NCBI RefSeq assembly: GCF_003334405.1 | Contig: NZ_QOWM01000030.1 | Length of the DNA stretch: 14,301 nt | Origin: Escherichia coli | GTDB lineage: Bacteria > Pseudomonadota > Gammaproteobacteria > Enterobacterales > Enterobacteriaceae | Strand: one strand, 5' to 3' | Notes under the pieces: model-generated | Database searches by the model: none | The model's input: the letters and a program-made list of their open reading frames with translations, nothing else | What the model was told of the DNA's origin: nothing | Shown: in pieces, positions 1-1,802 of the stretch | How the letters are laid out: each line of letters opens with the position of its first letter | How positions within the stretch are numbered: the stretch's first letter is position 1 | Position numbers and translations under genes: made by a program

Positions 1-1146
1 GCGCCAACCTGTGGCCTGTGCTGTAGCAATTTGAAGCTCACCAGATCCTACCTTTCTCCAGGTACCGGATTGGCACGAAAGTATTGCCCCTGTATTATCG
101 CGGCCTACAAGGCCGTTAGGCGAACATGATGCGCCAGCAACGGCAGTTCTTTCCAGTTGTAAGTATTCACCAGTATAAAGGCGACCATCAGCCCGAACAG
201 TACCGCCTTTCACCTGACCGCCGGTATAGATGCCCTTGTTGTTTACACTTCGAACCCATGATCCATCGGACATATAAAATCCGCCACCGTGAGTTTCATT
301 GAGCCAGCCTTTACTGTTACGAGTAATTAACCAACCATTATTACTTCTGATATCACCGCCAGCGGTGACATTTACGTCAAAGTTTCCGCTATTGCCTTTT
401 ACCTGACCGCTGAAAGTGCCATTTACACCATTCACATTGCCGCTGAAATTACCTGTCTGGGCATTTACTGCCCCAACGTTATTCAGGTTATTTGATCCCA
501 TATCAATGGCCGTGTGCATTTTGTTTAAGTCAGGGCGACCATTGACCTGGAATCTGTAAAGACGATCAGTGTCCTCAGCTGCACCACTAAGTTCATCTGT
601 CGATAACAATACGGCAATATGCCCGTTACCGCTTTTGGCACCATAATTACTTAAAGCTACTGACCAGGAACGTAATGCACCTGTGGCTGTTTTGCCGTCC
701 TGGATATATCCACCAAGACCAGTGGTAATATCCTTAGCCATCTGGATAAGTGCTTTCACTGGATAAGGGGTGCCACCACTGGATACAACCATTGCCTGTA
801 GTAATTCCGGGTTTTGGGCGTTTCGAACCACATATGCCTGTAACCGCTGCCCCTCACTGTTTGTCTCAGTAAACCCGCCGGACAAAAAGCCGGTATTTTT
901 CAGCATGGTTGTCGTGATGACGGCAGGGGTTGTTGTGGTACTACTGGTCTGGAGAGTCGTGTAGTTTTTCCCTATATAAGAGCGGGCCGCACTGGTCCAG
1001 TTGCTGACAAGACGTGCTTCAGTTTGCCACCCTTTGGTTTGAATATAGTCCTGCCATATGCCCGCTCCCCAGGCAATCAGGAGCATAACAATCAATAAAG
1101 CCGCGCCAGTTTCCAGCGATGCCCAGCCTCGGTCATATTTTTTCAT
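1..1146 (-). CDS. pilV: Type IV prepilin-like minor pilin/adhesin PilV, N-terminal constant region; 3' end lies beyond the window edge
   Basis: I translated the minus strand in this frame by hand at both ends (1146 to about 300, and 300 to 1) with no stop; the track omits it because it has no stop in-window. N-terminus MKKYDRG|[19 protein letters not shown] is a short-leader type IV prepilin signature (Gly at -1, Glu at +5, then a hydrophobic helix). The ATG at 1146-1144 overlaps the pilU stop (ATGA). Two Cys near the visible C-terminus (ASCSPNG...AILSCQSG). Last gene of a pilL-V array. Confidence 0.8.
58..76 (-). other. Candidate shufflon sfx 19-bp site-specific recombination site (minus strand GTGCCAATCCGGTACCTGG) inside the 3' part of pilV
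   Basis: The exact 19-mer is read directly and encodes S-C-Q-S-G-T-W at about PilV residues 357-363. It matches my recollection of the conserved 19-bp repeat bounding invertible shufflon segments in IncI plasmids (Rci recombinase target). Only one copy is visible because the window ends 57 bp further on. Confidence 0.5.
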
Positions 1147-1802
1147 CAGATTACCCATAGTGGTTGATAAAGATTATCCAGCAGCAAAAGGACATGGCCA
1201 AAACATAGCCATGGACCCAGAGGGCCTTCTTTATGCCCTTTTATGCACCATGTTGAATGCCATAAGACAAATCCTCCTGTACCCAGCAACACACACCATA
1301 TGGCGTTATATAACCCTGACCATGCGGTAATACCTGCAATAAGCCACAGGTCTCCAGTGCCAATATTAAGACGATGGCGGTTAACTAATTTATGAAGGCA
1401 GAATAAGACAATTGCAGCAGTGGCAAATTCTGTTGTACGGAACCACCATATATCAGTCGTGATTTGTGATAGCATTCCTGCAATTAAAAAACGCCGGGTG
1501 AATGTTCCTGGTAATAAACCTGTCAGTGCATCCGTTACCGCCATTTGCAGTATGAACGAAAGAATAAGGACAGCATGAATACGGTAGAGCAGTGGTGATG
1601 ATGATAAAATAATTAACGCCACAGCTATACTGTATAGCCATATTCCTGACAGAACAGCAGGGTGTGTCTTATACCAGAGATGTCCCGTATCAGATAAAAA
1701 ATAACGAACTCTGAATAGCAGAGTTCGTCCAATAATGGAAAATGTGAACATCAATGGCAGTATATAAACAGGGGATAGACTTATGCCTACGATTGTCTGC
1801 AT
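1146..1802 (-). CDS. pilU: Prepilin peptidase (A24-type, type IV prepilin leader peptidase)
   Basis: Polytopic membrane protein with two Asp-containing motifs (AVTDALTG and IGTGDLWL) like the catalytic Asp pair of prepilin peptidases. I prefer the ATG at 1802 (218 aa), which has AGGGAGG 6 nt upstream, over the track start at 1829, which lacks a usable RBS. Either start overlaps the pilT 3' end. Confidence 0.8.

Follow-up and report, generated by a model that had tools for sequence, protein, structure and literature searches.

An 11-residue pseudo-repeat array at the length-variable site of the IncI1 pilus tip adhesin PilV, adjoining a module that also occurs in phage tail fibers

PilV occupies the tip of the thin type IV pilus of IncI plasmids and binds recipient lipopolysaccharide (LPS) in liquid mating, and inversion of the shufflon gives it seven alternative C termini (PMC10516633). 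For the PilV shufflon an analogy with phage Mu has been noted (PMC9881135). In another type IVb pilus, CofB forms a trimer at the tip (PMC10191384, PMC5207764). Here we analyze the pilV gene at the left end of a 14,301-nucleotide stretch of Escherichia coli DNA (contig NZ_QOWM01000030.1 of assembly GCF_003334405.1; hereafter, the window). An initial annotation of this stretch had proposed that positions 199 to 480 encode Gly/Asn-rich pseudo-repeats, which would form a repetitive beta-structure in the adhesin stalk comparable to phage tail-fiber-like domains. The repeats proved genuine, although they are a small detail of a protein that is already well known. They lie at the single site where PilV proteins vary in length, directly upstream of a module that PilV shares with phage tail fibers. 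We read residues 225 to 268 as a spacer in a tail-fiber-like shaft, structured and probably trimeric, on which the reach of the shufflon-encoded tip would depend, and we give this reading slightly better than even odds (about 0.55).

The identity and coordinates of PilV given in the annotation were confirmed. The protein is the minus-strand translation of the window from position 1146 to position 1, which comprises 382 codons and is open at the left window end. The Pfam family Shufflon_N (PF04917) matches residues 33 to 361 (model positions 1 to 324, E of 3.8e-186), and a search of NCBIfam with PilV gave weak prepilin-type matches only. At the DNA level, pilV is 99 to 100% identical to IncI1 plasmids bearing the annotation "pilus tip adhesin PilV," and window positions 150 to 560 are 100% identical to ColIb-P9 (NC_002122.1). 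It is therefore the same protein as PilV of the R64/ColIb-P9 (IncI1) thin type IVb pilus, with no difference between them. The complete PilV allele on an identical plasmid has 444 residues.

Positions 199 to 480 encode PilV residues 223 to 316, in which glycine makes up 22% and asparagine 16%, and the peptides quoted in the annotation match residues 222 to 264 and 305 to 316 exactly. Self-comparison, one of the checks named there beforehand, did reveal a periodicity: with BLOSUM62, every best off-diagonal window had a lag of 11 and fell within residues 225 to 257. At this lag, residues 223 to 265 have 12 identities in 32 positions versus 4.1 expected (z of 4.4), and shuffles of this segment that kept the local composition gave a family-wise P value of 0.0015 over lags 2 to 30. 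The motif G.F[SD] recurs at residues 232, 243, and 254. The periodicity thus holds for residues 225 to 268 and not for the whole annotated interval, since residues 223 to 316 taken together have no significant lag (P of 0.27); residues 269 to 316 are outside the 11-residue array and belong to the Trp/Gly-rich module described below. In window coordinates, most of the right half of the annotated interval (199 to 342) falls within this module. A second GQVKG at residues 310 to 314 makes this the sole repeated 5-mer of PilV. A repeated 5-mer also appeared in 11% of whole-protein shuffles and in 3.7% of shuffles of residues 200 to 361, and we rejected GQVKG as a strong repeat signal because its recurrence is just marginally beyond chance.

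Repeated DNA motifs had been reported as well, and the quoted strings are present at 403 to 420 and 439 to 453. Tandem Repeats Finder returned 0 rows for the DNA, and a DNA repeat search found a single 26-nucleotide family with 69 to 73% identity. The units share 16 to 19 of 33 nucleotides with each other, which sums to 53 of 99 over the three units, and resampling of synonymous codons with this gene's codon usage predicts 53.1 ± 2.9. Because the identity equals the amino acid and codon expectation, the DNA motifs reflect the peptide repeat and not a recent duplication. One rival view holds that the pattern arose by chance from a composition rich in Gly and Asn, or that it is a DNA tandem repeat acting as a contingency (slippage) locus; we consider it barely credible. 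The empty Tandem Repeats Finder output and the marginal recurrence of GQVKG count in its favor. However, the lag of 11 is significant against shuffles that preserve local composition, and the same period is found in homologs, which argues against an accident, and the DNA identity of the units does not exceed that from synonymous resampling. Furthermore, about 1340 records of IncI1-type plasmids, with ≥95% identity over most of the query, have one fixed number of units, which excludes slippage, and every such row among the matches listed aligns in one piece, without indels. On the grounds of Tandem Repeats Finder, the codon expectation, and this absence of indels, a DNA tandem repeat or recent duplication was rejected.

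A homolog search of 1.84 billion representatives yielded 1614 relatives, and many of the alignments break near residues 230 to 260. The spacing from the neck motif N.M.T.IDM to GGG.YM.D ranges from 44 to 146 residues among homologs in which it is under 200, and spacings of 57, 68, and 79 in orthologs correspond to a step of 11. In an alignment of ten orthologs, the flanks are conserved and 0 to 42 residues are inserted exactly at the repeat site. The left flank is this neck motif, in which P205, N208, M210, T212, and M216 are invariant or nearly so in 110 homologs, and the right flank is the TAGGDIRS part of a degenerate fourth unit. The number of G-x-F-S units per ortholog is none in two proteins, one in four, and three in this PilV, and the homolog P0006 has about seven GNVTAN-type hexapeptides at the repeat site. 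One site therefore absorbs all of the length variation of the PilV family, with 0 to about 7 short units and, in some relatives, up to roughly 600 residues of repeats of the phage tail-fiber kind.

The period is also a property of the family. Among 75 homolog stalks, the best periods with a z of ≥3 were 11 (n = 11), 6 (n = 11), 12 (n = 5), and 17 to 18 (n = 4). The PilV protein of IncI2 plasmids keeps three units in the same 11-residue register (GTLNGNAAALS, GDISARNGTFS, and GAISGNTATTN), and in a comparison of IncI2 and IncI1 pilV DNA, only the downstream module of this region still aligns. When 33 units from 10 proteins were put in register by hand, position 3 was V, I, or L in 91% and position 5 was G, A, or S in 91%. 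The conservation is thus periodic and position specific.

In long relatives, the spacing at the repeat site is about 330 to 630 residues; in PilV-like pilins of 725 to 933 residues, it is roughly 370 to 600 residues and consists of IPxLDASKITTG-type repeats. Four relatives (P0090, P0098, P0144, and P0149) contain long IPxLDASKITTG(T/V)F arrays between the pilin domain and the module, and the inserts of P0090, P0149, and P0144 match tail and tail-fiber families of PHROG with E values of 1e-12 to 1e-16. Eight others (P0037, P0040, P0058, P0094, P0122, P0137, P0146, and P0147) are without the Trp-rich module, and in those, Gly/Asn/Val/Thr hexapeptide-like repeats alone join the neck to a GRL..GEYLQL segment. 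In some other relatives, the repeats are placed after the Trp module.

In our preferred reading, that of a tail-fiber-like spacer, a fibrous shaft would connect the pilin domain to the receptor-binding tip, and the 11-residue (6 + 5) units would be its proximal part; every half-unit would contribute one short strand, its V or F facing inward, along with a Gly/Asn turn. Because characterized tail fibers are trimers and CofB forms a tip trimer, we infer that PilV may assemble at the pilus tip into a homotrimer, like phage fibers, CofB, and TcpB, in which case the short strands would pair with the same segment of the other PilV chains. In this reading, the number of units would determine the distance by which the shufflon-encoded tip extends beyond the end of the pilus toward the recipient LPS.

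An AlphaFold2 model of the PilV monomer built with 110 homologs was confident for the pilin domain (residues ~10 to 190), with predicted local distance difference test (pLDDT) scores of 94 to 98. The region from 280 to 360 was confident (pLDDT of about 95) yet strand-poor, and the tip was a beta-sandwich. The repeats thus lie in the stalk, between the pilin domain and distal PilV, as had been annotated. Several observations weigh against a structured, trimeric spacer. In the monomer model, residues 209 to 280 are extended and without any DSSP element, at a pLDDT of 64 to 83, and an AlphaFold2 run on three linked copies of residues 200 to 366, joined by (GGGGS)10 linkers and supplied with an alignment of 25 triplicated homologs, gave a mean pLDDT of 33.9, an unusable model that speaks neither for nor against a trimer. 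A Foldseek comparison of the monomer model with the PDB found nothing at an E value of ≤1e-3 (best E of ≥0.04), the top weak matches being R-type pyocin fibers, tailspikes, the PCSK9 C-terminal domain, and an H-type lectin. When the PDB was searched by sequence and by profile with PilV, the 110-sequence profile, a module profile, P0149, and P0090, only pilin N termini and chance PDZ matches were returned, so that sequence comparison detects no solved structure for either the repeats or the module. For the repeats themselves, no match to phage proteins was significant, those in PHROG being only marginal (E of 0.0016 and 0.009). To these points we add the manual register of the 33 units and the fixed unit number in IncI1-type plasmids, which means that no tuning is seen on short time scales. 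Against predicted viral structures, Foldseek gave eight matches at an E value of ≤1e-3, to fiber-type or uncharacterized phage proteins and with low template modeling scores. The repetitive beta-structure suggested by the annotation is neither confirmed nor refuted by the monomer and linked-trimer models.

The main rival is that residues 225 to 268 are a flexible, largely unstructured Gly/Asn/Ser-rich hinge or linker joining the pilin domain to the adhesin part, in which the periodicity is a relic of old duplications without structural meaning. This is consistent with the low-complexity composition, with the absence of DSSP elements and a pLDDT that falls to its minimum for the model (64 to 67) at residues 241 to 260, with the high variability in length among homologs, and with the flexible linkers that are present in CofB (PMC5207764). 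However, hydrophobic and small residues are conserved by position across distant homologs, the 11-residue register is retained in the IncI2 protein, the family repeatedly shows periods of 6, 11, and 12, and the pLDDT of the segment exceeds the usual level for disorder. We regard a flexible linker as rather unlikely.

A second structured alternative is a beta-solenoid (a hexapeptide-type left-handed beta-helix or similar) formed within a single PilV chain. Like the Hexapep left-handed beta-helix proteins, PilV has short repeats in which fixed positions are taken by an aliphatic and a small residue, with Gly/Asn turns of the kind typical of solenoids, and several homolog stalks show periods of 6, 12, and 18 (for example, GNVTAN six times in P0006). 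The Hexapep repeat is ~6 residues long and reads [LIV]-[GAED]-x-x-[STAV]-x, whereas PilV differs in both residue order and period (11 = 6 + 5), with a pattern of aliphatic-x-small-G/N and not [LIV]-G-x-x-[STAV]-x. No Hexapep or pentapeptide family, nor any Pfam family other than Shufflon_N, matched at an E value of ≤10. AlphaFold2 built no solenoid from 110 sequences, three to four units (about 44 residues) would make barely two coils, and some orthologs have no unit. We find a monomeric solenoid quite improbable; as a family assignment, the hexapeptide/pentapeptide solenoid was rejected on the basis of Pfam and AlphaFold2.

The likeness to phage tail fibers noted in the annotation stands for the module that adjoins the repeats, and the Gly/Asn repeats themselves do not share it. 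When PilV residues 200 to 361 were compared by tblastn with 50,697 phage records, 23 records matched, most of which are annotated as tail fibers, from Nitratiruptor phage NrS-4, T4-like phages of Aeromonas and Pseudomonas, crAss-like phages, and phages of Xanthomonas and Stenotrophomonas. All of these matches were confined to PilV residues of about 260 to 330. By BLASTP, the NrS-4 tail fiber is 46% identical over 50 residues (E of 2e-11), and a T4-like Pseudomonas phage fiber is 57% identical over 37 residues (E of 2e-10). Conversely, Shufflon_N is the sole Pfam family matched by these phage fibers, and only at model positions of about 205 to 300. The module next to the repeats is thus homologous to a part of phage tail fibers. 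A pattern scan of IMG/VR gave 333 confirmed copies of the module; in 76 of the 80 loci kept, it lies in long open reading frames (ORFs; median of ≥850 residues, with 57 ORFs of ≥500 amino acids), and none of these ORFs has a prepilin motif. The module has no Pfam family of its own, Shufflon_N alone covering it, and no solved structure detectable by sequence.

Two further observations concern the distribution of this Trp/Gly-rich module. It is present in hundreds of phage tail-fiber ORFs (loci L002 to L004 and L006 to L085). Two PilV-like pilins, P0030 and P0076, carry two or three tandem copies, which in P0030 lie at about residues 375 to 415, 425 to 465, and 530 to 575; the module itself can therefore be reiterated along the shaft.

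A broader reading is that PilV combines a minor pilin of type IVb with the distal region of a phage tail fiber in one chimeric protein, homotrimeric on the conjugative pilus tip. The 11-residue units would build a triple-stranded shaft together with the Trp-rich module, and the number of units (0 to about 7, or hundreds of tail-fiber-repeat residues in relatives) would tune reach through the recipient O antigen or capsule. The shufflon would then be a phage-style host-range switch by descent and not only by analogy. We put this forward tentatively, at somewhat less than even odds.

The PilV "constant region" is filed under one Pfam family but divides into three: the pilin domain, the repeat spacer with its variable length, and the module that several hundred phage tail fibers also contain (Table 1). 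The N-terminal domain has a pilin fold with an alpha-1 helix. Beyond the module, C341, C358, G353, G361, and W363 are nearly invariant in the 110 PilV homologs. The repeats had been placed just before the variable tip, which was incorrect, as ~95 conserved residues (the module and the Cys341-Cys358 loop) separate them from the sfx crossover. The sfx site itself, GTGCCAATCCGGTACCTGG, has one exact match in the window versus 0.01 expected; it was identified by what we take to be the sfx consensus of R64. Because this site marks the junction between constant and variable parts, the window begins only 57 nucleotides into the first shufflon segment.

Table 1. Features of pilV in the window (coordinates in nucleotides; residues numbered in PilV)
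Feature	PilV residues	Window position	Strand	Basis
pilV coding sequence: constant region and first 21 codons beyond the shufflon junction		1..1146	-	Translation, Pfam Shufflon_N, plasmid annotation
Type IV pilin domain: N-terminal alpha-1 helix and globular head	1-195	562..1146	-	
Conserved neck motif, immediately upstream of the repeats	204-224	475..537	-	Conservation in homologs
Three clear 11-residue pseudo-repeats, G-x-V-x-[AG]-x-x-G-x-F-[SD]		376..474	-	Lag-11 autocorrelation, off-diagonal windows
Unit 1	225-235	442..474	-	
Unit 2	236-246	409..441	-	
Unit 3	247-257	376..408	-	
Degenerate fourth unit	258-268	343..375	-	Stacked register, ortholog alignment
Trp/Gly-rich module common to phage tail fibers	271-321	184..336	-	tblastn, BLASTP, Pfam
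Post-module segment and Cys341-Cys358 loop, end of constant region	322-361	64..183	-	Conservation, AlphaFold2
Shufflon sfx recombination site	357-363	58..76	-	Exact match, 0 mismatches

In the identical plasmid locus, the pil genes encode, in order, an ATPase, a platform protein, the major pilin, a lytic transglycosylase, the prepilin peptidase, and PilV, and the ORFs upstream of pilV in the window are the same thin-pilus operon genes. pilV is the final gene of the type IVb pil operon and is immediately 3' of the prepilin peptidase gene. At window positions 1143 to 1148, its start codon shares one base with the stop codon of the prepilin peptidase (ATGA), which suggests translational coupling; plasmid pAZ1114-2 (L001) is annotated with the same 1-nucleotide overlap.

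IncI plasmids, whose recipients in liquid are decided by PilV, are major carriers of extended-spectrum beta-lactamase and mcr-1 genes. Research has concentrated on the tip that the shufflon encodes. Should the shaft be trimeric and its length be important, mating specificity would have a second determinant in the length of the stalk, engineering in the manner of a tail fiber could be applied to PilV, and a widespread phage tail-fiber module without a solved structure would gain a name and a second biological context. Taken by itself, the repeat is an ordinary result, a short fibrous spacer in a known adhesin, and the tail-fiber homology of the module is a more interesting by-product.

In the literature that we searched on PilV structure, the PilV trimer, and Shufflon_N/PF04917, we found no account of the repeat, of the length polymorphism, or of tail-fiber homology in the constant region, and what we did find was only the functional analogy with Mu and one fusion of PilV with a tail collar (PMC9881135). 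With CofB of the CFA/III pilus of enterotoxigenic E. coli and TcpB of the toxin-coregulated pilus in Vibrio cholerae, PilV has in common a pilin-fold N-terminal domain, but sequence similarity is undetectable, as neither the single PilV sequence nor the 110-sequence profile gave a match at an E value of ≤1. Unlike theirs, the extension of PilV has a phage tail-fiber module and a shufflon-variable tip. With phage tail fibers (the distal subunit of the T4-like long tail fiber, crAss-like fibers, and that of NrS-4), PilV shares the module of about 50 residues, at 46 to 57% identity and with the pattern GW..(T/S).G..GW.N.T.GGG.YM.D..W.R..N.K.(I/F)Y. In both, the module is flanked by short Gly/Asn/Thr-rich repeats, and both are receptor-binding fibers whose tip can be switched by DNA inversion. 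They differ in their anchoring, which is by a baseplate-binding N terminus in the phage fiber and by the pilin domain in PilV, and in their switches, since the shufflon uses sfx sites and the tyrosine recombinase Rci, whereas the phage switches use Gin/Cin-type invertases.
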